NCBI GenBank assembly: GCA_022563395.1
Contig: JADFNM010000001.1
Coordinates: 19,891 to 83,890, forward strand
Reading direction: 5' to 3'
DNA length: 64,000 bases
From: Patescibacteria group bacterium
GTDB taxonomy: Bacteria > Patescibacteriota > Minisyncoccia > Minisyncoccales > UBA10102
The notes under the pieces are model-generated. The model saw nothing but the letters and a program-made list of their open reading frames with translations, made no database searches and was not told where the DNA came from. Numbering within the stretch: the first letter of the stretch is position 1; the number at the start of each line of letters is the position of its first letter. Both the position numbers and the translations under genes were made by a program. Below, one piece after another: positions 16,271-44,413 of the stretch.

Positions 16271-16352
16271 TTCCTTAATTTCATTAAGGAGATAATCAAT
16301 AGAATCAATCATGCTTAAATGAGATTTAAGCAGCATGGAGAGAAAGAATCGC
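16271..16352 (+). repeat. three-hairpin intergenic cassette, copy 1 (terminator module replaced)
   Basis: TTCCTTAATTTCATTAAGGAGATAATCAATAGAATCA...CATGCTTAAATGAGATTTAAGCAGCATGGAGAGAAAGAATCGC aligns with the copies at 39012, 40705 and 44318. Confidence 0.85.
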
Positions 16353-16387
16353 AGAGCTAAGCTCAGCTTTGCATGCGGAGCCTGGTA

Positions 16388-16416
16388 TTGACATTCTAGA
16401 CTCCATATGGTAGTAT
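16388..16416 (+). promoter_or_regulatory. promoter of csp (TTGACA-17-TAGTAT)
   Basis: A consensus -35 and a good -10. It leaves a 5' UTR of about 95 nt, as is usual for cold-shock genes. Confidence 0.65.
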
Positions 16417-16515
16417 TATTTTGTTTAAATCAAAGCTGCAAGAGAAACAGAGTCGAGTTTTAGTCTTCAGCATTCTGTATTTAAGCGTCTAATTAAGCTA
16501 TTTCTTTTTACAGCA

Positions 16516-16743
16516 ATGCCAGAAGGAACTATTGCTCGATTGACTGACCGAGGATTTGGATTCATTAGTGTTGAGGGAGAGGAAAAAGATCTTTTTTTCC
16601 ACTCCAACGAACTCAAGAATGTAGAGTTCAAAGATCTTCGGGAAGGAGATAAAGTAACGTTTGAGATAGGAGAAAGTCCAAAGGGACCTAACGCCACCAA
16701 CGTTAACCGAGTTGAAGCTGAAGCTCAAGCTGAAGCTGCATAA
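16516..16743 (+). CDS. cspA: cold-shock domain protein
   Basis: GFGFI (RNP1) and DLFFH (RNP2-like) motifs. 75 aa with an EAEAQAEAA tail. Confidence 0.9.
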   Translation: MPEGTIARLTDRGFGFISVEGEEKDLFFHSNELKNVEFKDLREGDKVTFEIGESPKGPNATNVNRVEAEAQAEAA

Positions 16744-16753
16744 CAAAACAAAA

Positions 16754-16779
16754 GCACCCCCAATATTGGGGGTGCTTTT
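16754..16779. terminator. bidirectional intrinsic terminator
   Basis: GCACCCCC AATATT GGGGGTGC flanked by an A-run and a T-run. Confidence 0.85.
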
Positions 16780-16824
16780 GTGTCTAAGCTTTCAATCGTC
16801 AAGAAGGCGGTTTTTTTGGTATAG

Positions 16825-16962
16825 TTAATTACTACATAGACTACAATCTATCGCTACATCACCGGAAAGCTCGTAGCCTACTTGTTGCATGAACAGAAAA
16901 GTAGCAGCCGCACTCATAACTATAAGAACTATAACTATACTCATTGGTATTTTTGCGCCCAT
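16825..16962 (-). CDS. possible 45-aa hydrophobic peptide (below the ORF-track cutoff)
   Basis: Hand translation: MGAKIPMSIVIVLIVMSAAATFLFMQQVGYELSGDVAIDCSLCSN. It has one TM helix and lies in an otherwise empty 530-nt gap. Confidence 0.3.
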   Translation of the reverse strand: MGAKIPMSIVIVLIVMSAAATFLFMQQVGYELSGDVAIDCSLCSN

Positions 16963-16983
16963 GGTTTGTTGTTTGTTTTAACC

Positions 16984-17106
16984 TTATTTAAGAATCTTTC
17001 GACCCTCTTTATTATCAATTCTAGACTCCTCGCCGATTTTAATGGTTATTATATTTACTCGGATTTTGTCGGCTAGTTCTTGGGTGGTATAAAACTCTTT
17101 GTTCAC
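16984..17106 (-). CDS. possible 40-aa HTH-like mini-ORF (GTG start)
   Basis: Hand translation: (M)NKEFYTTQELADKIRVNIITIKIGEESRIDNKEGRKILK. It loosely resembles excisionase/MerR-type HTH N-termini. A TATAAT lies 8 nt upstream on the minus strand. Confidence 0.2.
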   Translation of the reverse strand: MNKEFYTTQELADKIRVNIITIKIGEESRIDNKEGRKILK

Positions 17107-17203
17107 GTTCTTTTATTATACTTTACAATGGCTTGCAAAGTAAAGAGTCTGTTTTGCACAGAACAGGTTCTAACATCGTCTTGTAGGAGGGAACCGTTTA
17201 CTG

Positions 17204-17259
17204 CCTAAGCGAGACTTAGGAAGTATGGCTAAAGAGAATCGCCAAGAAGGCGGTTTTTT
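17204..17259 (+). repeat. partial cassette (palindrome plus terminator module)
   Basis: CCTAAGCGAGACTTAGG...GAGAATCGCCAAGAAGGCGGTTTTTT. The terminator module is also present at 16790-16817. Confidence 0.7.
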
Positions 17260-17273
17260 GGTAATATATATGC

Positions 17274-18017
17274 ATGGATCCATTTTTTCTTACGCTGCTT
17301 GCAACCTTTGGCATTGCTGCGCTTGCGCTTTCAGGGAGTTTTCTCTTGTTTGTAAAGGACCATTTCTTAAAGCGTATTTCGTTGTATCTTCTTGCTATGG
17401 CAGCCGGTGCCTTGCTGGGAACCGCATTCTTGCATATTCTTCCCGAAGTAGTAGATAAGGGAGTTCCGGAGCAGGGATTCTTGATTCTGCTTGGCGGATT
17501 TCTCTTTTTCTACATTGGTGAAAAGCTTCTCCATTTGCACCATGGGCCCCAAGGAGCAGACGAGCACAGTCCTCGTGTTCTGGGTGTGCTGAGCCTTTCG
17601 GCTGATGCCGTGCACAACTTTGTTGACGGTATTATCTTGGCCGTGGCCTTTTTGGTGGATGTAAGGCTTGGCATGGTGACGGCAGCTGCCGTTGCTCTGC
17701 ATGAGATACCCCAAGAGATAGCCGAATTCGGGGTGCTCTTGTATGCCGGGTTCTCAAAGCGGCGGGCTCTATTCTTAAACTTTCTTTCTGCAACAACCGT
17801 TATCCTTGGAGGAGTTGTGGGATTTTTATTCCAAGAAACTTTCATCTCCTTTATTCCTTTTGTGCTGCTGTTTGCGGCAGGAAGCTTTTTATACATTGGA
17901 GCTTCAGACTTTGTGCCGGAGTTTAAGAAAGAGCGCAATCCAAAGAGAGCTCTTGCTCTTTCTTTCACCTTCTTTTCTGGAATCTTTTTAATGTGGATAT
18001 TTACCTTTGTGGAGTAA
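17274..18017 (+). CDS. zupT: ZIP-family divalent metal transporter (ZupT-like)
   Basis: HNFVDGIILA and ALHEIPQEIAEFGVL motifs. TAATAT at 17263-17268 lies 5 nt before the ATG, which is leaderless geometry. Confidence 0.88.
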   Translation: MDPFFLTLLATFGIAALALSGSFLLFVKDHFLKRISLYLLAMAAGALLGTAFLHILPEVVDKGVPEQGFLILLGGFLFFYIGEKLLHLHHGPQGADEHSPRVLGVLSLSADAVHNFVDGIILAVAFLVDVRLGMVTAAAVALHEIPQEIAEFGVLLYAGFSKRRALFLNFLSATTVILGGVVGFLFQETFISFIPFVLLFAAGSFLYIGASDFVPEFKKERNPKRALALSFTFFSGIFLMWIFTFVE

Positions 18018-18260
18018 AAAAAGGCCAAAACTAGATTGCTTTTATATGAACCAAAAGTCGCCTTCGGGCGATTTTCTGTTAGAACAAACAAGAGGACGGC
18101 ATAGAAGAGGAGATTGACTGGATGATCCTGGCCGGGTTTGTGCGGAGTGGAGCTGTGGAAAACCGCTCTTGAGGTGCTTTTTTGTTTCCCAGGGTTTGTG
18201 GTAGCATACAAGAAGAAAGGGCGAAGCTACATAAAGTATAATTTTAACAGACACGTTCGT

Positions 18261-18743
18261 ATGAACAAAATAATTCTTGTGACAGGGGCCATTCTTGTTC
18301 TTGGGGGGGCGCTGTTCCTCTGGCAGATAGGGCTTCCCGGGTACACGGGCAGCGTTCCTTATGTAGAGGAGGTAGAGGAGGCAAGCATCTTTGAGAGGAT
18401 TCTTTCTGGGAACGGCACGCAGAAAGCCGTGCTTGAGCCGGTTGACGAGAGCAACAGCCGGGGGTTGGGGTACCGCTTCGTTCAGGACGGCACGATGCTC
18501 CACGCGGTTGCAGCGAGAATGGAAGACCCCTTGGAGGGAACCGTGTACGAGGGCTGGCTGGTGCAGCCCGAACCCCTCCGGTTTTTCTCCACGGGAGTCC
18601 TGGAGAAGAACGAGCAGGGAGAATGGGTGCTGGAGTTTGAGTCCCAGGAGGAGTACCCTTCCTACACGCGCGTCATGATTACGCGAGAGTTCATGGTGGA
18701 CGAGACCCCGGAGGCGCACATCCTGGAAGGAGACCTCTTTTAG
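18261..18743 (+). CDS. hypothetical membrane-anchored exported protein (GC-rich gene)
   Basis: The start is taken at MNKIILVTGAILVLGG, with TATAAT at 18237-18242. No firm family. It is visibly more GC-rich than its neighbours. Confidence 0.55.
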   Translation: MNKIILVTGAILVLGGALFLWQIGLPGYTGSVPYVEEVEEASIFERILSGNGTQKAVLEPVDESNSRGLGYRFVQDGTMLHAVAARMEDPLEGTVYEGWLVQPEPLRFFSTGVLEKNEQGEWVLEFESQEEYPSYTRVMITREFMVDETPEAHILEGDLF

Positions 18744-18760
18744 GAGGCCCCATTCTTCTC

Positions 18761-18789
18761 TTGACGCGAAAGAGGGAGCATGCTATACT
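18761..18789 (+). promoter_or_regulatory. promoter (TTGACG-17-TATACT) with a 5' UTR of about 140 nt
   Basis: Near-consensus boxes. The next plausible ORF starts at 18937. Confidence 0.6.
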
Positions 18790-18936
18790 CATTGTTGTAC
18801 TAGAGTCGGAGTACAGTTTCCACCCCACGAAGATTATGTGGGTTGGTAGTAGAAGTCACATCAAGATTCTTTTGAAATCAAGTTGTACTTCGAAAATAGA
18901 GTGGAACAAGAAAACCAAGGAAGGTTTCAGAGACCT

Positions 18937-19083
18937 ATGGTAGAAGGAAACTGGACTTGTGCCGATTGCGGCACAGCCATTACCCAGCTTCCTTTCCAAC
19001 CTCGTGCTGGAACGGAGAACAATGTTCGCTGCACTGATTGCTGGCGAAAGAATCGTCCTCCTCGAAGAGACTTCCAGAATTAA
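18937..19083 (+). CDS. small CxxC...CxxC zinc-ribbon protein (CxxC-x17-CxxC-like family)
   Basis: MVEGNWTCADCGTAITQLPFQPRAGTENNVRCTDCWRKNRPPRR. The W-C-x2-C...LPF-P...C-x2-C pattern with a basic tail fits the family. Confidence 0.6.
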   Translation: MVEGNWTCADCGTAITQLPFQPRAGTENNVRCTDCWRKNRPPRRDFQN

Positions 19084-19091
19084 AACCACAG

Positions 19092-19117
19092 CCCTGCACC
19101 ATACGGTGCAGGGTTTT
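19092..19117 (+). terminator. intrinsic terminator
   Basis: CCCTGCACC ATAC GGTGCAGGG followed by TTTT. Confidence 0.85.
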
Positions 19118-19243
19118 GGTTTACCTTTTCTTTATATGTTTGTCTGGGGAAAACTTTTTTGCCTTGATTCTTTGCTCTATGGTATGGTGGTGAAACGATA
19201 TCACGTGGTGTACTCAAAGAAAAGCTGGAAAGAAGGGAGTACC

Positions 19244-19495
19244 ATGCCAGAAGTGCAAGAGTTGTGGCACGAATGCGTGCGGTGTGGGAGCATCTTTGAT
19301 GCAGATACTCCCGCCTGTCCTCCGTGCGGAGCGGAAGAGCCACGAGAGCTGGACCTTACGCTCAGGGAAGTTCTGGAACATGTTGATCCAACCAAGGTTT
19401 GGACCAAGACCCCCAAGAGGTTCTACGAACTTCTCGAGGAAAGAAAGCAAGTCCTTGCTCAAAGAGAGCTGGATGCCCAAGCTGTGTCGGTGTAG
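19244..19495 (+). CDS. hypothetical small zinc-ribbon protein
   Basis: MPEVQELWHECVRCGSIFDADTPACPPCGAEEP... carries CxxC...CxxC. The start choice is uncertain, since the ORF is open from 18959. Confidence 0.45.
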   Translation: MPEVQELWHECVRCGSIFDADTPACPPCGAEEPRELDLTLREVLEHVDPTKVWTKTPKRFYELLEERKQVLAQRELDAQAVSV

Positions 19496-19540
19496 CTGAC
19501 ACAGCTTTTCTCTTTGTCGTGAGTGTGATACGAAAGTGGT

Positions 19541-20302
19541 ATGAACCAAAGGAGATTTTTCAAGGAAGCAAGATGGTTGCTTCAAGAAAAGTATCAAAGC
19601 AAACTTACAAAAGCTGCAAAAAAAGATATTGCACGACTCAAAGCAGGGGAGCCGGTGGATTACCTTATTGGATTTGTAGAGTTTGCGGATTGCCGCATTG
19701 ATCTTTCCTTAAAACCTCTCATTCCTCGCCCGGAAACAGAGCATTGGACCCAAAAAGCCATACAAGATATCCGCATGTCTCCTAAACGAAATTTAAGCAC
19801 TCACTGTTTAGATGTATTTTCCGGATCAGGATGTATTGGCATTGCAGTTTTAAAGCACATTCCCCATGTTTGTGTTGACTTTGCAGAAAACGAGAAAAAG
19901 TTTTTACAGCAAATTCATCTTAATCTTAAAAAGAACAGAATTTCAAAGAAGCGCTTTCGAGTATTTCAGTCAAATATCTTTTCTGAAGTATCTTTGCGGT
20001 ATGACTACATTTTTGCCAACCCACCATATGTCGCAAAATCAAAGAAACATAGTGTACATGCATCAGTTCTTAGGCACGAACCTCGTGAAGCTTTGTTTGC
20101 GGGGAAAGATGGGCTTTTGTACATCAGAAGGTTTTTGAAAGAAGCAAAAACACATCTCAAACCAAAGGGATCAATATACCTGGAGTTTGACTCTCCTCAG
20201 AAAAAAGAGATAGACAAACTTCTCCAGCGGTTTGACTATAGTTCTTGGCAATTCCATAAAGACCAATACGGGAAATGGCGTTTTGTCGTTGTGGAAAACT
20301 AA
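19541..20302 (+). CDS. prmC: release-factor glutamine N5-methyltransferase
   Basis: FANPPY (NPPY motif), VFSGSGCIGIA (SAM motif) and EPREAL. Confidence 0.85.
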   Translation: MNQRRFFKEARWLLQEKYQSKLTKAAKKDIARLKAGEPVDYLIGFVEFADCRIDLSLKPLIPRPETEHWTQKAIQDIRMSPKRNLSTHCLDVFSGSGCIGIAVLKHIPHVCVDFAENEKKFLQQIHLNLKKNRISKKRFRVFQSNIFSEVSLRYDYIFANPPYVAKSKKHSVHASVLRHEPREALFAGKDGLLYIRRFLKEAKTHLKPKGSIYLEFDSPQKKEIDKLLQRFDYSSWQFHKDQYGKWRFVVVEN

Positions 20303-20345
20303 ATCTCGTTTAGTTATCCACACCTAAACGAGATTTAAGCAGACG
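20299..20345 (-). repeat. DnaA-box-loop palindromic element (inverted orientation)
   Basis: CTAAATCTCGTTTAG TTATCCACAC CTAAACGAGATTTAAGCAGAC has a 14-bp perfect stem. TTATCCACA lies at 20314-20322. Confidence 0.9.
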
Positions 20346-20972
20346 AAGTTGTTCTAAAGAAATACTATCTTTGATTGTGAAATCTCCGACACGGGTGCGT
20401 TCAAGCTCGGTGAGATAGGCGCCGGTGCCCAATGTTTCTCCAATGTCTTTTGCTAAAGAGCGGATATATGTGCCGGCGGAACATACAACTCGAATCTTGA
20501 GCGAGGGCGGAGAATATTTGAGCACCCCAATCTCGTGAATCTGCACTTTCCGACTGGGGAGCACCACATTCACGCCTCTTCTTGCAAGCTTGTACGCGGG
20601 AACCCCTTTTACCTTTATCGCAGAATAGGGCGGGGGAGTCTGCTTTATCTCTCCCACAAATGACCTTAGCGTATCCTTAATCTCGCTTAAGTGTGGATAA
20701 CTTAGTGAGACCAAGGATATTTGGCCTTCGGGGTCGCCTGTAGTGCTGGTTTTGCCAAGTTCTAGGGTAGCAACATATTCTTTTTTGGTGTTTTTGGTGA
20801 TTTCAGTGAGTTTTTTGGTATCCTCTCTTCCCACGGCAACAACAAGAACACCTGTTGCAAAGGGGTCTAAGGTACCTGCATGCCCTACCCGCCTTTCTCC
20901 TGTTTGTCTTCTGACTTCATCCACCACGTCGTGGGAGGTTATGCCTTTTGGCTTGTTGATGTTGAGTACCAT
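20310..20972 (-). CDS. truB: tRNA pseudouridine-55 synthase
   Basis: GHAGTLDPFATGVLVVAVG (the catalytic Asp motif). Confidence 0.92.
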   Translation of the reverse strand: MVLNINKPKGITSHDVVDEVRRQTGERRVGHAGTLDPFATGVLVVAVGREDTKKLTEITKNTKKEYVATLELGKTSTTGDPEGQISLVSLSYPHLSEIKDTLRSFVGEIKQTPPPYSAIKVKGVPAYKLARRGVNVVLPSRKVQIHEIGVLKYSPPSLKIRVVCSAGTYIRSLAKDIGETLGTGAYLTELERTRVGDFTIKDSISLEQLRLLKSRLGVDN

Positions 20973-21007
20973 TAAGGGTAAACTTAACTAAACTAAGTTT
21001 AGCAGAA

Positions 21008-22651
21008 ATGAATCTAAAAGAAGAACTCAAAACAGTACTCAAGGGTGAAGTGGAGGACTCGCCAGATATTCTCCAAGAGTACAGCAGAGATGCTTCTCTC
21101 TTTGAGCTAAAGCCCCGGTTAGTTGTATTTCCCAGAGATACAGAGGATGTAAAATCTTTGGTGAGGTTTACCAAAGAACATCCGGAGGAAAACTTGTCTT
21201 TAACCGCAAGAGCCGGGGGAACGGACATGACAGGAGGGCCTTTGACCCAAAGCATTGTGGTGGATATGGCGCGCCACTTTAACAACATTCTTGAGATTAA
21301 AAATAATAGAGCAAGGGTGCAGCCGGGGGTTTGGTACCGGGACTTTGAAAAGAAAGCTGCAAAGCAAAACCTTTTGCTTCCTTGCTATCCTGCTTCAAAG
21401 GACATTTGCACCTTAGGGGGCATGGTAGCGAATAATGCAGGAGGAGAAAAGACCTTGCGTTATGGCAAGACCGAAGATTACGTTATAGAGCTTAAGATAG
21501 TTCTTTTAGACGGAGAAGAACATACCGTAAAACCCCTCTCATTTCAGGAACTTAAAGAGAAGATGGCAGTTGAAGGATTTGAGGGAGGGTTTTACCAAAA
21601 GATATTTAAGCTGGTTCAAGAACACAAATCCCTTCTTGCATCGGTAAAACCCAAGGTTTCCAAAAACTCTGCCGGATACTACCTTTGGAATGTATGGGAC
21701 GGAGCAACTTTTGACTTAACAAAACTCTTTGTTGGCTCTCAAGGCACGTTGGGGATTATTACTGAGATAACCTTTACATTGGTAACGCCAAAAAAGCATT
21801 CTACCCTGCTTGTACTCTTTTTGTATAATTTTGCACCGCTGGCAAAGCTTACACAAAAGCTTCTGAAACATAAGCCAGAGAGCCTGGAATCGTATGATGA
21901 CCATACATTGCAATTTGCAATCATGCACATTCCGGATTTTATTAAGCTCTTGAAGGGGAACATCATCACCTTAGCTTTTCAGTTTATCCCCGAGTTTATC
22001 ATGTTTTTGAAAGGAGGACTAAAACTTCCAAAACTGGTGGTGTTAGCTGAGTTTACCGGAGACTCAGAAGAAGAAGTCTACAAAAAAGCCGCAGCTGCAA
22101 AAAAGGATCTTGCTGGTTTCAAAGCGCTGATGAGAATTACACGTTCTGACAAAGAGGAATTAAAGTATATGACAGTGAGAAGGCAGAGCTTCAATCTGTT
22201 GCGACACCACGTGAAAGGCAAGCGCACCGCTCCCTTTATTGACGATATCATTGTTCCGCCAGAAACATTGCCTGAGTTTTTGCCAAAGCTTCAGTACATC
22301 CTGGCACAGCACCCAAAGCTCGTCTATACCATTGTGGGCCATGTAGGGGACGGCAACTTTCACATAATCCCCTTGATGGACTTAAGAAAGGAAGAGAACA
22401 GAATTCTTATTCCCTCTTTAATGGAGCAAGTGTACAAGTTGGTGTTTGAGTACGGGGGAAGCATGACTGCAGAACATAATGACGGCATTATTCGCACCCC
22501 CTTTTTAGAAGATATGTTTGGCAAAGAAGTGGTAGAGTTGTTTTCTAAAACCAAACAAGTGTTTGATTCTCAGGGTATCTTTAACCCGGGCAAAAAAACA
22601 AAAGGTGATGTGGATTTTGCCCTTTCGCACATAAGTCTCAAAAACAAGTAA
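21008..22651 (+). CDS. FAD-binding oxidoreductase (GlcD / D-lactate dehydrogenase-like)
   Basis: PCMH-type FAD-binding N-terminus (VVFPRDTEDVKSLVRF...ARAGGTDMTGG) and a C-terminal FAD-oxidase domain. Confidence 0.8.
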   Translation: MNLKEELKTVLKGEVEDSPDILQEYSRDASLFELKPRLVVFPRDTEDVKSLVRFTKEHPEENLSLTARAGGTDMTGGPLTQSIVVDMARHFNNILEIKNNRARVQPGVWYRDFEKKAAKQNLLLPCYPASKDICTLGGMVANNAGGEKTLRYGKTEDYVIELKIVLLDGEEHTVKPLSFQELKEKMAVEGFEGGFYQKIFKLVQEHKSLLASVKPKVSKNSAGYYLWNVWDGATFDLTKLFVGSQGTLGIITEITFTLVTPKKHSTLLVLFLYNFAPLAKLTQKLLKHKPESLESYDDHTLQFAIMHIPDFIKLLKGNIITLAFQFIPEFIMFLKGGLKLPKLVVLAEFTGDSEEEVYKKAAAAKKDLAGFKALMRITRSDKEELKYMTVRRQSFNLLRHHVKGKRTAPFIDDIIVPPETLPEFLPKLQYILAQHPKLVYTIVGHVGDGNFHIIPLMDLRKEENRILIPSLMEQVYKLVFEYGGSMTAEHNDGIIRTPFLEDMFGKEVVELFSKTKQVFDSQGIFNPGKKTKGDVDFALSHISLKNK

Positions 22652-22678
22652 TCCACAGGAAGCTATGGGTTGTATGAC

Positions 22679-22708
22679 TTGACGTACTTTTGTTGCCCAA
22701 GGTAGAAT
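22679..22708 (+). promoter_or_regulatory. promoter (TTGACG-18-TAGAAT) upstream of the riboswitch candidate
   Basis: Boxes at 22679-22684 and 22703-22708. Confidence 0.55.
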
Positions 22709-22734
22709 GCTTGCAGAACACAAGTGAAATGACA

Positions 22735-22963
22735 GGAATTCAGAGGAAGTGGGTGTAATTCCCATGCCACAGCCCTGTACCATATGGTACTGGGCGTGGC
22801 CGTGCATCAAATGATGCATGGCTCCCCCGGAACGGTTAGAGCCCGGTCGACTGAATTCCCCTCTATAAGTTTTGGTCACGTCCACTCGAGGGAGGGGGAA
22901 AGCGTCCATGAAAGGAAAAGCTTCTTTCAGGTGACCTTAAAACTCCCTCAGGAGTATTTTTTT
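22735..22963 (+). promoter_or_regulatory. candidate cobalamin riboswitch with terminator-type expression platform
   Basis: Closing helix GGAATTCAG (22735-22743) pairs with CTGAATTCC (22851-22859). AGGAAGTGGGTGTAATTCCCATGCCACAGCCC resembles the GGGAA..GGTG..AA..CC..GC core. AGAGCCCGGTCGACTG (22838-22854) resembles the B12 box AGCCCGAAGACCTG of btuB. ACTCC CTCA GGAGT A TTTTTTT lies at 22942-22963. The downstream genes are DUF4430-type. Confidence 0.6.
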
Positions 22964-22973
22964 GGCTTGAAAT

Positions 22974-25473: not shown

Positions 25474-25543
25474 CCCCCACACCATAACAAGGTGTGACCC
25501 CGTCCTATTTGCGCAAAGCGCGCACCTTGTTTAGTGTGGGGGT

Positions 25544-25572: not shown

Positions 25573-25578
25573 AAGGAC

Positions 25579-28057: not shown

Positions 28058-28105
28058 CTGCTTAAATCTCGTTTAGGTGTGGATAACTAAACGAGATTTA
28101 GGCAA
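28058..28105 (+). repeat. DnaA-box-loop palindromic element
   Basis: CTGCTTAAATCTCGTTTAG GTGTGGATAA CTAAACGAGATTTAGGCAA. TGTGGATAA lies at 28078-28086. It starts 1 nt after the tkt-N stop. Confidence 0.9.
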
Positions 28106-28110
28106 ACAAA

Positions 28111-35184: not shown

Positions 35185-35185
35185 G

Positions 35186-35842: not shown

Positions 35843-36177
35843 TGGAGAAGTTAACTGAGAAAAAATGCGTGCCGTGTGAAGGAGGAACTCCTCCTTTGAA
35901 CGAGGAAGAAATCCAAGCATACGCAGGTCAGCTTCAGGGTGAATGGGAGGCTATAGATGAGAAAAAAATACAAAAGCAGTTTTCTTTCAAGAACTTTAAA
36001 GAGGCCTTGGCGTTTGTAAACAAGGTAGGCGAGATTGCAGAATCTGAAGGGCACCACCCTGATATTCGCCTGTTTGGATACAAGAATGTGGAAATTGAGC
36101 TTTCTACGCATGCCATTGGCGGTCTCTCCGAGAATGACTTTATTGTAGCCGCAAAAATAGAGCAGCTTTCTGCTTAA
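35842..36177 (+). CDS. phhB: pterin-4-alpha-carbinolamine dehydratase
   Basis: F.F.NF..A..F.N.V...AE..GHHPD motif. Confidence 0.85.
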   Translation: MEKLTEKKCVPCEGGTPPLNEEEIQAYAGQLQGEWEAIDEKKIQKQFSFKNFKEALAFVNKVGEIAESEGHHPDIRLFGYKNVEIELSTHAIGGLSENDFIVAAKIEQLSA

Positions 36178-36218
36178 ATCTCGTTTAGGTGTGGATAACT
36201 AAACGAGATTTAAGCAGA
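36169..36218 (+). repeat. DnaA-box-loop palindromic element (20-bp perfect stem)
   Basis: TCTGCTTAAATCTCGTTTAG GTGTGGATAA CTAAACGAGATTTAAGCAGA. The PCD stop codon TAA (36175-36177) lies inside the left arm. Confidence 0.92.
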
Positions 36219-36234
36219 CGGGGGGATACTGCAA

Positions 36235-36654: not shown

Positions 36655-36667
36655 AGGAATCAAATTT

Positions 36668-36736
36668 CAGTTTCCCCCGTGTAGGAAATTATTCAAAACC
36701 GAGGGTTTTGAAAAGAAGGGGGGTCGGGGGAAACTG
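36668..36736 (+). other. nested hairpin element between the DUF296 gene and the nagZ-like gene
   Basis: A 12-bp outer stem (CAGTTTCCCCCG with CGGGGGAAACTG) encloses CAAAACC GAG GGTTTTG. No T-tract follows. Confidence 0.45.
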
Positions 36737-36757
36737 TGTGAGCGTAAATTTCATGAG

Positions 36758-37813: not shown

Positions 37814-37837
37814 GGACAATAGTATGCTAGAAACACC

Positions 37838-38230
37838 ATGGAAGAACTTATCATCCATAGCAAAAAGGAAAAGGAGGTTTTAGACATTACCGATGAACTA
37901 AAAGAGCTCGTCAGGGAAAAGGGGGCGAAAGAGGGGGTGTGCAACCTTTTTTTGACCCATACCTCGGCTGCCTTAACCACGGCAGATTTAGATAACGGAA
38001 CGGATTTGGACATGCTGGATGCTTTTGAAGAAGTGGTGCCCCAGTTAGCATACCGTCACCCCCACAATCCAGGGCATGTGAAATATCACATTCTCTCTTC
38101 TATTATTGGTTCTTCTCTTACCATTCCCATTGAAAAAGGGGAGTTGGTGCTGGGGCCATGGCAGAAAATCGTGTTAATTGAGTTTGGAGGCCCGAGAGAA
38201 AGAACCGTTGCAGTGAACTTTATTTCCTGA
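37838..38230 (+). CDS. yjbQ: YjbQ/UPF0047 family protein (secondary thiamine-phosphate synthase)
   Basis: FLTHTSAALT...GHVKYHILSS...LVLGPWQ.I.L.EF pattern. Confidence 0.85.
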   Translation: MEELIIHSKKEKEVLDITDELKELVREKGAKEGVCNLFLTHTSAALTTADLDNGTDLDMLDAFEEVVPQLAYRHPHNPGHVKYHILSSIIGSSLTIPIEKGELVLGPWQKIVLIEFGGPRERTVAVNFIS

Positions 38231-38232
38231 AT

Positions 38233-39009
38233 ATGTCTCAGTTCTATTCCGGAAAACGAAGTAGAAACTTGTATGAACCCTCAACAAAGGAGTCTTTTCG
38301 TTTAAGCCGCTCCAAGATCGAAAACTTTTTGAAGTGTCCCCGCTGCTTTTATCTTGACCGGCGCCTTGGCGTGGACCAGCCGCCTGGGTATCCATTTAGC
38401 CTCAATGCTGCCGTAGACACCTTGCTCAAAAAGGAGTTTAATCTTTTGAGAACAAAGCGAGAACCCCATCCTTTATTTAAAGAATACGGCATTGACGCTG
38501 TTCCTTTTCAGCACCCAAAAATGGATGAATGGAGAGAAACCCTAAAAGGCCTTCAGTATTACCATGAGCCCTCAGGATTTTTAGTGACCGGCGCGGTAGA
38601 CGACATTTGGCAGAACTCAGAGGGAGAATTACACGTAGTGGATTATAAGGCAACGGCAAAGAATGGGGAGGTGAACTTGGATGCTGACTGGCAGCGCTCC
38701 TACAAAAACCAAATGGAAATCTACCAGTGGCTCCTGCGTCATCAACCAGACGGGTTCAAGGTTTCTCCTTTGGGATATTTTGTGTATGTGAACGGTAAGA
38801 TGAACCGGGAAGCGTTTGACGCTCGCCTTGAGTTTGACATGAAGATTATTCTCTATAAAGGAGATGATTCCTGGATAGAAAAGGCCTTGATGGATGCAAA
38901 GAAAGTGCTGGATTCAGACAAGCTGCCGCAAGCAAACGAGGGGTGCGATTATTGTTTGTACCGAAAGTCGGTGCAGGACGTTTTGCAGCCCTTTCAGAAA
39001 AGCGAATAG
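38233..39009 (+). CDS. PD-(D/E)XK nuclease, Cas4/RecB-like, with CxxC...CxxC
   Basis: CPRCFY at the N-terminus, GAVDDI...VVDYKAT...QMEIYQWL (D...D/ExK...QxxxY) and CDYC at the C-terminus. Confidence 0.7.
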   Translation: MSQFYSGKRSRNLYEPSTKESFRLSRSKIENFLKCPRCFYLDRRLGVDQPPGYPFSLNAAVDTLLKKEFNLLRTKREPHPLFKEYGIDAVPFQHPKMDEWRETLKGLQYYHEPSGFLVTGAVDDIWQNSEGELHVVDYKATAKNGEVNLDADWQRSYKNQMEIYQWLLRHQPDGFKVSPLGYFVYVNGKMNREAFDARLEFDMKIILYKGDDSWIEKALMDAKKVLDSDKLPQANEGCDYCLYRKSVQDVLQPFQKSE

Positions 39010-39011
39010 TT

Positions 39012-39130
39012 CCTTAACGAAATTAAGGATTCCTTAGTTTAGTTAAGAGACAACCAAGAGAACCATTCGTGCTTAAATGAGATTTAAGCAGGAATGCAGA
39101 ATAAAGAGTCGCCAAACAGGCGATTCTTTG
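39012..39130 (+). repeat. three-hairpin intergenic cassette, copy 2 (diverged)
   Basis: CCTTAACGAAATTAAGG ... GCTTAAATGAGATTTAAGC ... GAGTCGCCAAACAGGCGATTCTTTG. Confidence 0.8.
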
Positions 39131-39148
39131 TTAAACTATGCAGGAGAT

Positions 39149-39994
39149 ATGAAACAGGTGAGTTATAGTCAGTTAATGACGTATGTGAGATGTCCTGAGC
39201 ACTGGCTGTTCCGTTACAAGCTGGGCTTAAAGCGCTCTCCCAAAAAGATTTTAAAACACGGTTTTGCCTTACATGAGACCTTTGCCTATCACTTTGACCA
39301 AAAAAAGAAAGATGGGAAAGGACTAAATGTTGGGGATGCAAAGGAGTTTTTTGCAGATGTTTTTCTGGAAGCATTAGATGACTATAAGCAAGAACTGGAG
39401 TCTGTGCGTCCCCATCTAACAAGGGAATATCTGAAAAAAGAACGAGAGGTTGATGTGACAAATTTGCTTGATCTTGGCATGCGGGGCATTGAGGTCTACT
39501 ACAAAAAACTTAATCAATATATTAAACCTGACTTAGTGGAAGAGGCATTTGAGTTCCCAGCTAGCAGGGAACTCAAGGTTATAGGAAGAATTGACCTTAC
39601 CGACAAGAGCAGTGTTATTCATGAGTTAAAAACCACCAGAAAATCACCCAATATGCAGGATATTCGTTCTGACCCCCAGCTTGCGATCTATCAGTTGGGA
39701 TACCATAGCATCAAAAAGAAATATCCAAAGGCCATTAGCAAAGACTACATTGTGCTTTCAAAGAGAGATTCTAGGATTGTACGATTTAAGGTTGCTCGTC
39801 CCTTTGTAAATCGCTTAACGATTCTTAGAAACATTAACACCATTATGGATGCGGCCCGCCACAACATCTTTTACTGCATGCATCCAGCAGAAAGTTGGTT
39901 ATGCTCTAAAGAATGGTGCGGGTACTATACTTTGCACCAGGAATTGAAAAAACTGGGATTACAAAAGTTTATGGCAAAGTATTTAAAGAAATGA
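39149..39994 (+). CDS. PD-(D/E)XK nuclease, Cas4/RecB-like (1+3 Cys pattern)
   Basis: RCPEHW at the N-terminus, GRIDLT...IHELKTT...QLAIYQLGY and the CMHPAESWLCSKEWCGYY C-terminus. The start is taken at MKQVSYS. Confidence 0.7.
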   Translation: MKQVSYSQLMTYVRCPEHWLFRYKLGLKRSPKKILKHGFALHETFAYHFDQKKKDGKGLNVGDAKEFFADVFLEALDDYKQELESVRPHLTREYLKKEREVDVTNLLDLGMRGIEVYYKKLNQYIKPDLVEEAFEFPASRELKVIGRIDLTDKSSVIHELKTTRKSPNMQDIRSDPQLAIYQLGYHSIKKKYPKAISKDYIVLSKRDSRIVRFKVARPFVNRLTILRNINTIMDAARHNIFYCMHPAESWLCSKEWCGYYTLHQELKKLGLQKFMAKYLKK

Positions 39995-40710
39995 TGGCAT
40001 CATATACCATAATACATCTTGGGGGGTCGGTGGTGGTCCCCCATATTTCAGATACAGGAGGCATCAATATTACCTATCTTAAAAAGCTGCGAACCTTTCT
40101 TTTGCCTCAGTTAAAAAAGGGCAGAAAGTTTATCATTGTCATTGGAGGTGGAAAGACCGCACGAGTGTATCAAAAGTCAGCAGAAAAGATTGTGAACATC
40201 CATGAATATGATTTGGACTGGATTGGCATTCATGCCACCCGTCTCAACGCGCATCTCTTGCGTACCATTTTTGAAAAAGAAGCATATCCCGTGGTTATTG
40301 ATCACGACCCCACGCGAGAGGAAGTAGAAATGCTAAAAAGTTCAAACAGGAATCTATTTTTTGCTTCAGGCTGGAAACCCGGATGGTCTACTGACTATGT
40401 TGCAGTGGAACTTGCAAGAAAGTTTGGCGCAAAGGAGATAATCATTGCAAAGGACACCCCATATGTGTATGACTCAGATCCCAAGAAGAACAAAAACGCA
40501 AAACCACTCAAGAAAATATCCTGGAAATTGTATAAGCAGATTATCCCACAAAAATGGACCCCCGGTCTCTCTGCCCCAGTTGATCCTGTAGCAACCAAAC
40601 TGGCAGAAAAGTTGGGACTTGAGGCAAAGATTCTCAAAGGGACCGATTTGAAGAATATGAAGAAGGCTGTAGAAGGAAAGCAATTTCGCGGCACCCTTAT
40701 TCATCCTTAA
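39991..40710 (+). CDS. pyrH: UMP kinase, archaeal type
   Basis: IIHLGGSVV...VIGGGKTAR...GWKPGWSTDYVA...DPKKN..A looks collinear, from memory, with archaeal PyrH. ATGA overlap with the upstream gene. Confidence 0.75.
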   Translation: MMASYTIIHLGGSVVVPHISDTGGINITYLKKLRTFLLPQLKKGRKFIIVIGGGKTARVYQKSAEKIVNIHEYDLDWIGIHATRLNAHLLRTIFEKEAYPVVIDHDPTREEVEMLKSSNRNLFFASGWKPGWSTDYVAVELARKFGAKEIIIAKDTPYVYDSDPKKNKNAKPLKKISWKLYKQIIPQKWTPGLSAPVDPVATKLAEKLGLEAKILKGTDLKNMKKAVEGKQFRGTLIHP

Positions 40711-40802
40711 TGAAATTAAGGAGATAATTGATAGAATCAGCCATTCTTAAATAAGATTTAAGCAGCATGGAGAGAAAGAATCGCCACAAAGGCGATTTTT
40801 TG
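40705..40802 (+). repeat. three-hairpin intergenic cassette, copy 3 (complete)
   Basis: CCTTAATGAAATTAAGGAGATAATTGATAGAATCAGCCATTCTTAAATAAGATTTAAGCAGCATGGAGAGAAAGAATCGCCACAAAGGCGATTTTTTGG. The pyrH stop TAA lies inside hairpin 1. Confidence 0.9.
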
Positions 40803-40835
40803 GTAAAATAGATTCATAAGTAGTATTCATGTAGT

Positions 40836-42389
40836 ATGCCAAATTTCTTGAAACGTCCCTTCGGAGTCATCTCTATCTTCGTTCTTATTGGTGTTATTGG
40901 AATGTTCTTTGTTTTGAGGGATCCTGGAGAACTGCGTATTGAAACAGCAGAAGTTGTAAGGCGCGATATTGTGCAGGAAGTGGCAGTGACCGGGAGAGTT
41001 AAGGCAGCTACATCCGTAGAGCTTGCCTTTGAGAAGGCGGGCAGGGTATCTCAGGTTCACGTAAGAGTCGGAGACAGGGTTGTTCCCGGGACTTTGCTTG
41101 TGAGTTTGGATAGCTCAGAATTGCTTGCCAACTTAACTGAAGCAAAAGCCGATGTGAAAGTACAAGAGTCAAAACTAAAGGAGCTTAAGCGCGGCACAAG
41201 AGTAGAGGAACTGGAGATTCAGCGGGTGAAGGTGCAAAATGCGGAGTTTGCACTACAAGATACCAGGCAGCAGATTCTTGATACATTGCAAGACAGCTAC
41301 ACCAGGTCAGATGATGCGGTGCGAAACAAGATAGACCAGGTGTTCTTAAATCCACGAGGTTCATCTCCACAGATTCTATTCATTGCAACGAATTTTCAAT
41401 TGGAGTACACGATTAAAACGAAACGCATCGTCGTGGAGGCAACACTCACTTTCTGGAAGGCTTCATTGGAATCCCTTTCCTTAAAGAGCGACCTGAAGGG
41501 AGCCCTTGAAACAACAAAGCAGAACCTAGGGGAGATTCAATCCTTTCTGGACGACTTGGCTCTTGCAATCAATGGGGCGACTCCCGCGGGTTCCATAACC
41601 CAGAGCACCCTAAACTCCTGGCAATCTGACGTTTCCACGGCAAGAACGAATGTGAATACGGCAGCTTCCAACACCAGCTCGGTAGAAGAAAGTCTGCAAG
41701 TAGCGCAATCGAGCTTGGCTTTGCAGCAACAGAACCTTGTCTTAAAAGAGGCTGGGGCTGCTCCAGAAGAGATTGCAGCCCAACAAGCAAAGCTGGAACA
41801 GTCAGGAGCTGCAGTCACAAAGATTGAGACGCAAATAGACAAAAACAAGCTATTCTCTCCCATTTTTGGCGTTGTTACCAAGCAGACGGCTAAGGTGGGA
41901 GAATTGGTGGTTTCAGCTGTCATCATCGTTTCTCTTATCTCAGAGAATGACTTTGAAATTAAAACCAATGTTCCAGAAGCCGACATTGCAAAGATACAGA
42001 CTGGAAACACAGCTGAGGTAACCTTAGATGCCTATGGCAGGGATGTGATGTTTGGAGCTAAGGTTGTGAGTATTGACCCCGCAGAAACCATTATTGAAGG
42101 AGTGGCAACGTATAAGGTAACCTTGCTATTTGAAAAAGAGGATGAGCGCATCAAGTCTGGCATGACTGCAAACATTAATATTGTAGGAGCAAGCAAGCAA
42201 GGAGTACTTGCAATTCCCCAAAGAGCAGTTATTCGAAAAGATGGTGAGAAGTTCGTTCGGGTATTCAGAGGAAAGGAGATAGAGGAAATGAATGTAAAAA
42301 CAGGACTGCGGGGTTCGGACGGCTTCATTGAGATTACAGAGGGCCTTAAAGAGGGAGACGTTGTCATCACCTTTCTTGAAGGTGAGTAA
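40836..42389 (+). CDS. HlyD/MacA-type periplasmic adaptor subunit
   Basis: N-terminal anchor, lipoyl-like segments flanking a long coiled coil, and a C-terminal beta-barrel pattern. An ABC pair follows. Confidence 0.8.
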   Translation: MPNFLKRPFGVISIFVLIGVIGMFFVLRDPGELRIETAEVVRRDIVQEVAVTGRVKAATSVELAFEKAGRVSQVHVRVGDRVVPGTLLVSLDSSELLANLTEAKADVKVQESKLKELKRGTRVEELEIQRVKVQNAEFALQDTRQQILDTLQDSYTRSDDAVRNKIDQVFLNPRGSSPQILFIATNFQLEYTIKTKRIVVEATLTFWKASLESLSLKSDLKGALETTKQNLGEIQSFLDDLALAINGATPAGSITQSTLNSWQSDVSTARTNVNTAASNTSSVEESLQVAQSSLALQQQNLVLKEAGAAPEEIAAQQAKLEQSGAAVTKIETQIDKNKLFSPIFGVVTKQTAKVGELVVSAVIIVSLISENDFEIKTNVPEADIAKIQTGNTAEVTLDAYGRDVMFGAKVVSIDPAETIIEGVATYKVTLLFEKEDERIKSGMTANINIVGASKQGVLAIPQRAVIRKDGEKFVRVFRGKEIEEMNVKTGLRGSDGFIEITEGLKEGDVVITFLEGE

Positions 42390-42393
42390 CTTC

Positions 42394-43062
42394 ATGGCCT
42401 TCCTTTTAGTAGAGAATGTAGAGAAAAGCTATAGTGACGGAACCCAGGCACTCCGGGGAGTGTCTTTTACAATTGAGAAAGGAGAGTTTGTTGCCATCAT
42501 GGGACCTTCCGGCTCTGGTAAGTCTACCTTGCTGCATGTTCTTGGATTTTTAGATAGGCAAACAAAAGGAGAGTATCGCTTTGATGGGAAAACGATTGAT
42601 GACTATACATCAGAGGAGTTGGCCCATGTTCGCAACAAAAGGATGGGATTTGTGTTTCAGGCATTTAACCTCTTGGCGAGAACCACAGTACAGGAGAATG
42701 TAAAGCTGCCCTTGTTGTATTCTGATGTGAAGAAATCAGAGCAAGAAGAATTGGCAAGAAAAGCGGTTGCAGCGGTGGGTTTGACAGAGCATAGCAATCA
42801 TCTTTCCTCCCAACTCTCTGGGGGCGAGAAACAAAGGGTTGCCATAGCTCGTGCGTTAGTGAACAACCCCGATGTTATCTTTGCAGATGAGCCTACTGGG
42901 AATCTTGATTCAACTTCCGGCAAGATAGTCATGAAAATCATCCAGAAGTTAAACGAGGAAGGACACACGGTTATTCTCATTACACATGAAGCCTATACCG
43001 CAGAGCACGCCCAGCGCATCATTTACATGCTAGACGGCAAGATTGAGGGCGACAGCAAATAG
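42394..43062 (+). CDS. ABC transporter ATP-binding protein (MacB/LolD-like)
   Basis: Walker [10 protein letters not shown], signature LSGGEKQR and Walker B IFADEPTG. Confidence 0.92.
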
Positions 43063-43063
43063 T

Positions 43064-44308
43064 ATGACGTTACAAGATAGCTTTAAGACCGCATTCAAGG
43101 GGTTGGAAACCAATCGTTCCCGCTCCCTTCTCACTATTTTAGGTATTGTTATTGGCATTACCGCCATTATTTTAATGATGTCCATTGGCCAAGGTGCAGA
43201 ATCCTTGATTCTTCAGCAGCTCGGAGGATTGGGAGCCGAAACCATTGTTATTCGCCCCGGCAAGCAGCCCACTGGTCCGAGTGACATTGGCGAAACCCTA
43301 CTGACCAATTCTTTGAAAACAAGGGATGTGGAATCCTTAAAGAGAAGAGAAAACGTGCCCGGTCTGGTTGAAATAACACCCATTCTTTTGGTGCCAGGGT
43401 CAGTATCATTTGAGGGGGAAACGTTTCGACCCACCATCATTGGAAGTTCGGGTAGCTTTTTCCCCGACGTGTTTAATGTCTATCCTAAAGAGGGCGTTTT
43501 GTTTGATGAGTCAGACATTACCCAGAATGCAAGCGTTGCAGTAATTGGCTCCAGGGTTGCTGAAGAGCTTTTTTTGAGCTCTGATGCCCTTGGAGAGTAT
43601 ATCACTATTAAAGACCGAAAGTTCCGCGTTATTGGAGTGTTTCCTCCAAAAGGCCAAGTTGCCTTCTTTAACATTAACGAGTTGGTTATTGTACCTTACA
43701 CCACAGCCCAGCTGTACCTCTTGGGCGTTGATTACTTCCATGAAATCATCGTGAAGGCAGAAAGTCAGGAAGCGGTTTTGCGAACAGTACGAGACATTGA
43801 ACTTACCTTGCGTGAAAACCATGGCATTGCAGATCCTAAGGACGATGACTTTTTTGTGACCACACAAGAAGGTATTGTAGAGCAGGTTCAGATTATCATT
43901 GGAGCCTTAACCGCGTTTCTGTCTTCGGTAGTTGCTATTGCTTTGGTAGTGGGAGGCATTGGAGTCATGAATATCATGTTAGTGTCGGTAACAGAACGAA
44001 CACAAGAGATCGGACTCAGAAAGGCCGTGGGAGCAACAGAAGGGGATATTCTCTTTCAGTTCTTATTTGAAGCAATCATTCTCACTGGGGTGGGAGGTGT
44101 CATTGGCATTGCATTAGGCACAGGTCTCTCCTTTTTGGCTTCCCTTGTTTTAACAGCTACTCTAGGCGTTACTTGGATCTTTGTTTTTCCCATAACCGCA
44201 GCTCTCTTGGGGTTCTTTGTGTCAGGGTTGGTTGGACTCATCTTTGGCTTGTATCCTGCAAGACAGGCCGCAAAGAAATCTCCGATTGAAGCTTTGCGCT
44301 ATGAATAA
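43064..44308 (+). CDS. ABC transporter permease, MacB/FtsX family
   Basis: TM1, a large periplasmic domain, and a C-terminal FtsX-like 3-TM bundle (...LRKAVGAT..DI..QFL.E). Confidence 0.88.
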   Translation: MTLQDSFKTAFKGLETNRSRSLLTILGIVIGITAIILMMSIGQGAESLILQQLGGLGAETIVIRPGKQPTGPSDIGETLLTNSLKTRDVESLKRRENVPGLVEITPILLVPGSVSFEGETFRPTIIGSSGSFFPDVFNVYPKEGVLFDESDITQNASVAVIGSRVAEELFLSSDALGEYITIKDRKFRVIGVFPPKGQVAFFNINELVIVPYTTAQLYLLGVDYFHEIIVKAESQEAVLRTVRDIELTLRENHGIADPKDDDFFVTTQEGIVEQVQIIIGALTAFLSSVVAIALVVGGIGVMNIMLVSVTERTQEIGLRKAVGATEGDILFQFLFEAIILTGVGGVIGIALGTGLSFLASLVLTATLGVTWIFVFPITAALLGFFVSGLVGLIFGLYPARQAAKKSPIEALRYE

Positions 44309-44317
44309 CCAATAGTG

Positions 44318-44413
44318 CCCTAATGCATTAAGGAGATAATCACTAGAATCATTCATGCTTAAATGAGATTTAAGCAGCATGGAGAAGAAGAATCGCCAAA
44401 CAGGTGGCTTTTT
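44318..44413 (+). repeat. three-hairpin intergenic cassette, copy 4
   Basis: CCCTAATGCATTAAGGAGATAATCACTAGAATCATTCATGCTTAAATGAGATTTAAGCAGCATGGAGAAGAAGAATCGCCAAACAGGTGGCTTTTTG. Confidence 0.9.

Follow-up and report, generated by a model that had tools for sequence, protein, structure and literature searches.

A repeated intergenic cassette in a Parcubacteria genome as a mosaic of REP-like palindromes and a putative terminator-promoter module

In E. coli and other enterobacteria, repetitive extragenic palindromic (REP) sequences are short imperfect palindromes that occur mostly at gene 3' ends and within operons, and that are joined by fixed linkers into mosaics of about 100 nt, the bacterial interspersed mosaic elements (BIMEs), which are abundant and species-specific. 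Here we analyse a repeat of similar build, a cassette of three hairpins found in a stretch of 64,000 nt (the window) on contig JADFNM010000001.1 of a Patescibacteria group bacterium (assembly GCA_022563395.1). This cassette is a species-specific mosaic of differently aged parts, and nothing marks it as a conserved RNA gene. We consider it probable that the cassette marks a boundary between transcription units. Its third hairpin with the sequence fused to it (module 3) would be the working part, ending the upstream unit and starting the next one, often with a leaderless mRNA, and hairpins 1 and 2 would be REP-like passengers. Taken alone, the cassette is nothing out of the ordinary, being a mosaic of the REP/BIME kind. 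It differs from the enterobacterial elements in having an unrelated sequence without a GTAG-type tetranucleotide, in ending in a terminator-promoter that is far older than its palindromes, and in its host, a member of the candidate phyla radiation (CPR) with a genome of about 0.7 Mb.

Other described repeats share some of these features. REPINs, the REP doublets that are associated with REP-associated tyrosine transposases (RAYTs), are comparable in that inverted doublets of the window palindromes form long hairpins (families D1 and D7), that the expansion is lineage-specific, and that RAYT-like genes occur in related Parcubacteria. However, no RAYT gene lies in the 64-kb window, and the cassette is a tandem of two different palindromes with linkers rather than a doublet. 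The BOX elements of Streptococcus pneumoniae and the Correia elements of Neisseria are likewise modular, structured intergenic repeats of about 100-150 nt, and Correia elements can give neighbouring genes promoter and terminator activity. However, the 26-bp terminal inverted repeats and the TA duplication that characterise Correia elements were not seen here, and the BOX modules are unrelated in sequence and lack a built-in terminator-promoter.

Module 3 has parallels of its own. As in the terminators of Neisseria and Haemophilus that are built from DNA uptake sequences, numerous unrelated terminators from many genomes share one 7-mer stem (AATCGCC/GGCGATT), but module 3 is sparse in the window (about 1 per 10 kb) and stands at a fixed distance from a -10 box. 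With the extended -10 leaderless promoters of Actinobacteria and Deinococcus it shares the TGnTAnnnT sequence, a start 6-8 nt downstream and the scarcity of Shine-Dalgarno (SD) motifs. Unlike them, it has a promoter that is fused base for base to the preceding terminator, whose 5' arm is the putative -35.

The host belongs to the Parcubacteria/Patescibacteria and is related to Wildermuthbacteria, its pyrH being 100% identical to a protein listed at NCBI under 'Patescibacteria group bacterium', with Candidatus Wildermuthbacteria and other Parcubacteria as neighbours. The relatives with which we compared the window are loci with a pyrH that is 82-86% identical (L020, L022 and L025) or 89% identical (L026), and two more distant ones, L147 and L148, the latter from Parcubacteria bacterium Greene0714_21. 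A profile hidden Markov model built from four copies detected exactly five copies of the cassette in the window, all on the + strand (nhmmer E of 2.8e-31, 3.8e-30, 9.9e-28, 2.5e-25 and 5.3e-9). A covariance model of the three hairpins scored these five at 110.6, 99, 96.2, 84.8 and 59.7 bits, compared with 25.9 bits for the next match in the window and 34 bits for the best match in relatives. Both models bear out an earlier reading of this sequence (the original prediction), which had described five copies in plus orientation. Numbering the copies along the window, copy 1 is 94% identical to copy 5 over 71 nt and 91% identical to copy 4 over 70 nt, and copies 4 and 5 are 87.5% identical over 72 nt. 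The 17-19-mers of the hairpins occur 14 and 10 times in the window, where 0.03 occurrences would be expected.

The three-hairpin fold as originally proposed was recovered in most copies. Covariation, which had been suggested as a check, proved not to be significant across the five copies: the only 2 compensatory pairs lie in hairpin 2 of copy 2, and 107 of 500 shuffles reached as many. The statement that hairpin 3 varies while remaining paired was correct to the extent that six one-sided stem changes are all still G.U-paired in the + strand RNA; one more position is an A.C mismatch, and the changes are one-sided only, with no compensatory double changes.

We could not find the cassette in relatives with 82-89% identical pyrH, either with the covariance model or by comparison. 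In a scan of GTDB genomes the 19-mer of hairpin 2 had 17 single matches in unrelated taxa, all of which we judge to be chance, and the cassette was absent; a cassette-specific 25-mer had 0 matches in JGI metagenomes. Hairpin 2 and module 3 had 0 matches each in viral contigs, which speaks against a phage link. Only rRNA and tRNA genes in the window reached the gathering score of an Rfam family, and at E up to 5 nothing overlapped copies 3-5, with just terminator-like matches far below threshold near copies 1 and 2. As a check for strain polymorphism we compared two near-identical assemblies (99.97%), in which 6 positions differ, none of them inside any repeat. The earlier suggestion of a conserved, 3'-UTR-derived small RNA (sRNA) family is thus contradicted in its conserved part: neither the relatives nor the GTDB scan nor the JGI metagenomes yielded the cassette, and covariation is not significant.

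Module 3 across the clade

Module 3 follows the stereotype AAAAATCGCCAAnnAGGCGRTTTTTT-G(G/A)-TAGAAT (consensus AAAAATCGCCAAnnAGGCGGTTTTTTGGTAGAAT), and its hairpins fold as an A-tract, a stem and a U-tract. A scan of metagenomes with AATCGCCAANNAGGCGRTTTTTT found at least 120 loci, with up to 4 copies within 7.5 kb, where by our own estimate about 4 chance matches would be expected. The counts that follow refer to 202 distinct instances among the matches listed, or to 155 where the upstream open reading frame (ORF) is concerned. A TAnnnT hexamer lies 0-3 nt past the T-run in 147 of the 202 instances, usually with two intervening nucleotides, GG or GA, and 80 of these 147 hexamers are TAGAAT, the commonest -10 of the clade. 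An ORF starts 6 nt (n=43), 7 nt (n=10) or 8 nt (n=12) past the hexamer in 65 cases, and a co-oriented ORF ends no more than 200 nt upstream in 102 of the 155 instances, at a median distance of 52 nt.

The TG of the extended -10 consists of the final T of the T-run and the G that follows it. The 5' arm of the hairpin, TCGCCA, stands at exactly 17-nt spacing 5' of the -10 and matches TTGACA at 4 of 6 positions. In promoters of the same type that lack exactly this stem, the resemblance to TTGACA has its sole peak at this offset (2.54 vs about 1.5 elsewhere), and many of the alternative stems are compensated variants such as CCGCC...GGCGG.

These results suggest that module 3 is an intrinsic terminator and an extended -10 promoter in fused form. 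As RNA it would be the terminator of the upstream operon, an old one present across the clade; as DNA, the same 35 bp would be the promoter of the next operon, comprising a -35, a spacer and an extended -10, with the TCGCCA of the hairpin 5' arm 17 bp upstream in the -35 position. Such dual coding of the stem, for termination and as a -35, would explain why its sequence is stereotyped and does not vary. A distance of 6-8 nt from hexamer to start codon is the normal distance from a -10 to a transcription start, and many of these mRNAs should therefore be leaderless: transcription would begin at or just before the start codon and yield mRNAs with no leader or a very short one.

Within the cassettes, copies 2 and 4 have terminator stems of 9-11 bp followed by T6, and copy 5 has a G.U-paired stem followed by T5, all as expected of intrinsic terminators; the tract of copy 3 is weaker, and copy 1 does not qualify. 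Copies 2, 3, 4 and 5 have a TGn and a TAnnnT hexamer at a proper distance from a gene start. The original prediction had the U-tract run into extended -10 boxes, and this is what we see (TGGTAAAAT in copy 4, TGGTAATAT in copy 2 and TGATAGAGT in copy 5). It had also offered a terminator-plus-promoter module as one reading of the cassette, and for hairpin 3 this is now well supported, by the metagenome loci and by orthologous positions in relatives.

Module 3 is present at orthologous sites in L020, L022 and L025, namely at the junction of the PD-(D/E)XK genes and 5' of ychF; it was not found in the more distant L147 and L148. The terminator-promoter of copy 5 is orthologous to that of L022, with which it shares the loop AAACA with GGTG, and TAGAGT, 5' of ychF. 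That of copy 3 is common to L020, with a shared locus-specific TTCTTTGTTA at the PD-(D/E)XK junction. Since these locus-specific features of copies 3 and 5 are common to relatives, the terminator modules must have been resident at these sites rather than imported. In L022, we also observed a BrnT/CopG toxin-antitoxin pair 5' of ychF (5100-5990) that is flanked by two terminator-promoter modules; a relic of the ychF start (GAGGATGGCCTTATTAGTC) follows the upstream module copy, and insertion of the toxin-antitoxin pair thus duplicated the boundary element.

The 16S rRNA of this genome ends in GGAUCACAUCAUUU (7200-7215) and is missing the CCUCC core of the anti-Shine-Dalgarno (anti-SD) sequence, a loss that has already been published for a subgroup of Parcubacteria (PMC9297842). 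An SD-like motif precedes just 6 of 71 genes, and a TAnnnT hexamer lies 5-9 nt 5' of the start codon in 19 of 71, compared with 6.5% at random positions. Leaderless or short-leader mRNAs would fit a 16S rRNA without anti-SD. We found nothing in the literature searched that links leaderless expression with Parcubacteria or Patescibacteria. A hairpin that sequesters an SD sequence or couples translation (TAAGGAG in hairpin 1) was also considered and ruled out, because the 16S rRNA has no CCUCC and SD-like motifs are rare.

We regard module 3 as the more useful outcome of this analysis, since throughout an uncultured Parcubacteria clade a single near-invariant sequence would double as a terminator, as the spacer of a promoter and as its putative -35. 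This gives a concrete, testable model of transcription layout and of leaderless translation start in bacteria that have no anti-SD, and a sequence signature with which operon boundaries and true start codons could be called in genomes known from metagenomes only.

Lineage-specific palindromes in hairpins 1 and 2

Hairpins 1 and 2 (types A and B) belong to one family of palindromes of 17-21 nt, with the consensus CYTWAAY-NNN-RTTWARG. Going beyond the original prediction, we find that these modules also occur outside the cassettes: the same short palindromes occupy 32 sites in the 64 kb, in both orientations, or about one site per 2 kb. When hairpins are defined strictly, 20 of 27 lie in non-coding DNA, which makes up 16% of the window, compared with about 4 in shuffles. 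Many palindromes overlap stop codons or separate genes of the same operon, for example atpA-atpG and atpG-atpD, and inverted doublets are common. Short, extragenic, present in high copy number and arranged in inverted doublets, hairpins 1 and 2 behave like lineage-specific elements of the REP/REPIN type. A GTAG-like 5' tetranucleotide is not conserved; the flanks differ among the sites, and copy 1 alone happens to have GTAG.

None of the A and B consensus hairpins was found in relatives with 82-89% pyrH identity, and no member of the family in about 0.66 Mb of Parcubacteria metagenome loci. The syntenic spacers of relatives are empty or filled by unrelated sequence, or the genes overlap. A related variant, A', is found at two sites in L020 and at one in L026. 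At the pyrH stop codon L026 has CCTTAGTTTAGCTAAGGAGATAT where the window has CCTTAATGAAATTAAGGAGATAAT, and the difference is a compensated pair; this palindrome indicates that the family started at low copy number and expanded in the lineage of the window. As the proliferation is absent from relatives with 82-89% identical pyrH, it represents a recent expansion of non-coding sequence. CPR/Patescibacteria genomes are known to be small and reduced, and one palindrome per 2 kb is unexpected in a CPR genome of about 0.7 Mb. Judging from REP elements, hairpins 1 and 2 might at most give the 3' end of the upstream mRNA some added protection.

We could not find a Y1 transposase gene in the 64-kb window (tblastn), and none of the best 120 Y1 homologues, of more than 7000, lies on the 671-kb contig of this genome. 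Many of these homologues are in Patescibacteria, and some are named RayT by JGI. In L148, a gene at 5001-5760 encodes a Y1 (HUH) transposase (PF01797, 217 aa), and the hairpin ACAAAGGTCCGTCCTTTGT stands on both sides of it in direct copies, an arrangement like that of RAYTs and REPs.

Five inverted doublets of the B type, of the form CTGCTTAAATCTCGTTTAGG-TGTGGATAA-CTAAACGAGATTTAAGCAG, lie at 20295-20344, 20672-20721, 28058-28107, 36170-36219 and 47281-47330. The central spacer of all five matches the DnaA box TTATCCACA perfectly, making these candidate DnaA sites by sequence. The window has six exact DnaA boxes, where we estimate that about 0.5 would be expected, and all but one of them stand within this frame; about 0.74 Mb of related loci contain 14 DnaA boxes, none of them in a palindromic frame.

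Assembly of the cassette and rival explanations

Hairpin 1, linker 1, hairpin 2 and linker 2 form an interior that is 87-94% identical between copies, and the orthologous spacers of relatives cannot be aligned to it. The A-type palindromes at the stop codon of copy 3 are also present in L020 and the interior is not, leaving about 45 nt of interior extra in the window. The interior was added upstream of resident terminator modules. The 5' two thirds of the cassette are built from two REP-like palindrome families that proliferated in this lineage alone, and an interior of about 75 nt would have been copied between boundaries that already had the terminator module and, in the case of copy 3 at least, an A-type palindrome at the stop codon. 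This copying is most simply, and most probably, explained by recombination or gene conversion, in which spacers with an A palindrome at one end and a terminator module at the other swap their interiors via the shared flanks. Transposition is possible, and a RAYT-type transposase specific for the hairpins would be the less likely route.

Copies 4 and 5 bracket a macA/ABC/FtsX efflux operon (40836-44308) that is missing between pyrH and ychF in relatives. The interval between these two genes is a variable island: they are adjacent in L148, and in other relatives VTT, HicAB, BrnT/CopG, M78/DUF4411, rhodanese or MscL genes lie between them.

Could the complete cassette instead be a self-contained sRNA gene, one of a multi-copy and species-specific family, with the TAGAAT of linker 1 as its promoter? 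Its transcript would start about 6 nt past TAGAAT and would comprise, in about 55-60 nt, hairpin 2, a single-stranded AGCAUGGAGAGAAAG and the terminator of hairpin 3; such an order, from a hairpin at the 5' end through an unpaired region to an intrinsic terminator, is the classic layout of an sRNA. Linker 1 indeed contains the commonest -10 hexamer of the clade in copy 4 (TGATAGAAT), copy 1 (CAATAGAAT) and copy 5 (CACTAGAAT), and hairpin 2 of copy 2 is still paired through its two compensatory changes. However, the box has decayed in copy 3 (GAGAAC) and is absent in copy 2, it has the TG extension in copy 4 alone, and nowhere does it follow the upstream T-run that is typical of promoters in the clade. 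Among copies that are recent paralogues, conservation of the box counts for little, and because relatives have a counterpart promoter 3' of pyrH (CTAAGGAGATATCCATGCTATACT in L026), it may be a relic. With covariation not significant, no Rfam match, and no cassette in any of the other sequences searched, we consider an sRNA gene unlikely. We are equally hesitant about a wider version, in which gene expression in a clade without the anti-SD is punctuated by a dual-coded 35-bp element, the terminator stem serving as -35 of a leaderless-mRNA promoter, and the cassettes are autonomous sRNA genes that exploit this element. If true, it would mean a young multi-copy regulatory RNA family, with a TAGAAT promoter, hairpin 2, an unpaired seed and a shared terminator, in a CPR bacterium of about 0.7 Mb.

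The copies are highly similar despite their unrelated spacers, and this would also be expected if the whole cassette were a mobile non-autonomous element that carries its own terminator and promoter, either a miniature inverted-repeat transposable element (MITE) or a REP/REPIN mobilised by a RAYT. The palindromes are extragenic, abundant and often in REPIN-like inverted doublets, and RAYT-like Y1 transposases are widespread in Patescibacteria and, in L148, flanked by hairpin repeats. But the ends of the cassette (CCTTAAT... at the 5' end, ...GGCGATTTTTTGG at the 3' end) are not inverted repeats, and comparison with relatives showed no duplicated flank, which answers the earlier proposal to look for target-site duplications. 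The terminator-promoters of copies 3 and 5 have orthologues in relatives and hence were resident, the searches placed no Y1 transposase in the window and none of the best 120 homologues on the 671-kb contig of this genome, and the GTAG-type 5' motif of classical REPs is missing. Mobility of the whole cassette therefore appears doubtful to us; having neither terminal inverted repeats nor a target-site duplication it is not a MITE in the strict sense, as had been suggested, although hairpins 1 and 2 do fit the idea behind that suggestion, a non-coding element that proliferates. Less probable still is a cis-regulatory role, in which a dimeric DNA-binding regulator would use the palindromes as operators, or an RNA-binding protein or an RNase would recognise them, and the cassette would thereby control the flanking genes. 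In favour of this, the sites are palindromes of 17-21 bp, perfect or nearly so, around a centre of 3-5 bp, and several adjoin promoters or start codons (33329, 10642 and 53959). Yet other sites lie within operons between atp genes or over stop codons, in both orientations, in long inverted doublets and next to unrelated genes, and relatives have the same genes without the sites, which is not how a conserved regulon would behave.

Several points weigh against the cassette as a transcription-unit boundary, the reading that we prefer. Not every copy can terminate: the terminator of copy 1 is missing its 3' arm and U-tract, and in copy 3 the U-tract is weak. That TCGCCA acts as a -35 is read from a 4/6 match and from its spacing, and since the lengths of the hairpin and of the T-run are fixed, a constant spacing would arise regardless. 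The stereotypy of the stem and loop could instead be due to a protein that binds this sequence, or to some other signal, and both termination and initiation are deduced from the DNA sequence. The -10 box of linker 1, which we treat as a relic, hints at an internal transcript. As to copying, neither recombination tracts nor a transposase were observed in the window, and our view is that of 64 kb out of a genome of about 0.67 Mb.

Further candidates were tried and rejected. A mini-ORF starting at the ATGGAG of linker 2 encodes peptides that are alike just where DNA identity dictates and that then diverge to different ends. The likeness of linker 1 to a Fur box extends to 11 of 19 positions, and its likeness to an IHF site to a WATCAA without TTR. 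An integron attC site does not fit either: the window has neither an array nor an integrase, the genes that are flanked belong to the core genome (pyrH and ychF), and the core sites are absent save for a chance GTTAAAC in copy 3.

Anatomy of the copies and neighbouring features

Copy 4 (40704-40809, + strand, as are all features of the copies described here) is complete and lies between pyrH and a macA-like gene that starts at 40836. Its hairpin 1 (40704-40722) contains the pyrH stop codon (40708-40710), as the original prediction had stated. In linker 1 the -10 hexamer is at 40732-40737, and hairpin 2 (40746-40762) is followed by linker 2, AGCATGGAGAGAAAG. The terminator is formed by AATCGCC (40779-40785) and GGCGATT (40791-40797) with a T-run at 40796-40801, and the extended -10 ends at 40809.

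Copy 5 (44318-44427), also complete, has an FtsX/MacB-like gene upstream and ychF downstream. Hairpin 1 is degenerate (CCCTAATGCATTAAGG), the TAGAAT of linker 1 is at 44344-44349, and hairpin 2 occupies 44356-44376. The terminator stem pairs ATCGCC with GGTGGC, and the hexamer TAGAGT (44416-44421) is followed 6 nt on by the ATG of ychF (44428), a spacing of the leaderless type.

Copy 3 (39011-39138) lies between the two PD-(D/E)XK genes. It had been described as diverged, which it is, but it is a complete cassette: the equivalent of hairpin 1 is the second of two palindromes (about 39030-39048), and the first, at 39011-39029, is an extra A-type palindrome that adjoins the TAG stop codon at 39007-39009. 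The decayed -10 of its linker 1 is at 39058-39063 and hairpin 2 at 39070-39090. Its terminator arms are AGAGTCGCC (39105-39113) and GGCGATTCT (39119-39127), and its -10 region is TGTTAAACT, with the hexamer TAAACT at 39133-39138 and a homology-supported ATG at 39150.

Copy 1 (16271-16352), between a thioredoxin-like gene and csp, is truncated. Hairpin 1 (16272-16290) has a loop that is inverted relative to copy 4 (TTTCA vs TGAAA), TAGAAT of linker 1 is at 16300-16305, and hairpin 2 (16312-16332) is followed by linker 2. Homology stops at AGAATCGC within the 5' arm of the terminator, without a U-tract; downstream are an unrelated hairpin and then a canonical csp promoter, TTGACA-17-TAGTAT. A stand-alone terminator-promoter module (AATCGTCAAGAAGGCGGTTTTTTTGGTATAGT, 16794-16823, + strand) without hairpins 1 or 2 lies 3' of csp.

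Copy 2 (17166-17267), in the spacer before a ZIP transporter gene, is a hybrid. It had been taken to hold the last two modules only; these are present, and the hairpin-1 slot is filled instead by a motif found across the clade, the X motif (GGTTCTAACATCGTC...GGGAACC or, shorter, GGTTCTAAC...GGAACC; 17166-17195). The B-type hairpin (17204-17220) with its two compensatory changes is followed by a stretch that resembles linker 2, and then by the terminator, AATCGCC (17237-17243) and GGCGGTT (17249-17255), and by the -10 hexamer (17262-17267), 6 nt before the ATG of the ZIP transporter gene (17274). The claim that all copies directly follow a gene does not hold, as copy 1 lies 142 nt past the thioredoxin-like gene and copy 2 within a spacer of 530 nt.

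A second X motif (GGTTCTAACGTTGTCC...GGGAGCC, 16179-16210) and a B-type hairpin (16232-16248) together occupy 16179-16248 on the + strand, just 5' of copy 1; the three illustrate how modules are stacked within one spacer. Across the clade the X motif has a length of 29 nt, (A)AACAGGTTCTAAC-[optional inserted hairpin]-ATCGTCC-N9-AGC, in which the length is fixed and the 9-nt core is variable. We found about 50-80 instances in L027-L146, including five in L075 and four in L093. They are co-oriented within contigs and usually lie 5-10 nt 5' of a terminator, be it the stereotyped one or a different one, or of a promoter; in copy 2, hairpin 2 and linker 2 separate the X motif from the terminator, which in other genomes is just those 5-10 nt away. 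The X motif gave no RNAalifold consensus fold and no Rfam match.

A second composite repeat of 61 nt (family D12, 74% identity) is found at 10632-10692 and 53949-54009, 5' of the 23S gene and 5' of a gene at 54070. It consists of an A-type palindrome, then AGAYATGCG...GGGG.CTT, and then a canonical TTGACA promoter. In the near-identical assembly L018, an F420-ligase-like gene is split into two ORFs by a 1-nt deletion (window position 47015), which marks a difference between strains or else an error of assembly.

The rRNA operon (5738-14148) is split, with about 3.2 kb between the 16S-tRNA-Ile-tRNA-Ala part, which ends at 7664, and the 23S gene, which starts at 10913. This gap holds five protein-coding ORFs, for MscL, a Ni-superoxide dismutase, an S26/S24-like peptidase, an MscS-like channel and one protein without a family match. 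The 23S gene has a promoter of its own, TTGACA-17-TATACT, and is flanked by an identical 22-nt hairpin on either side (10539-10560 and 13936-13957) and by the complementary arms of a processing stem (10860-10883 and 13888-13911).

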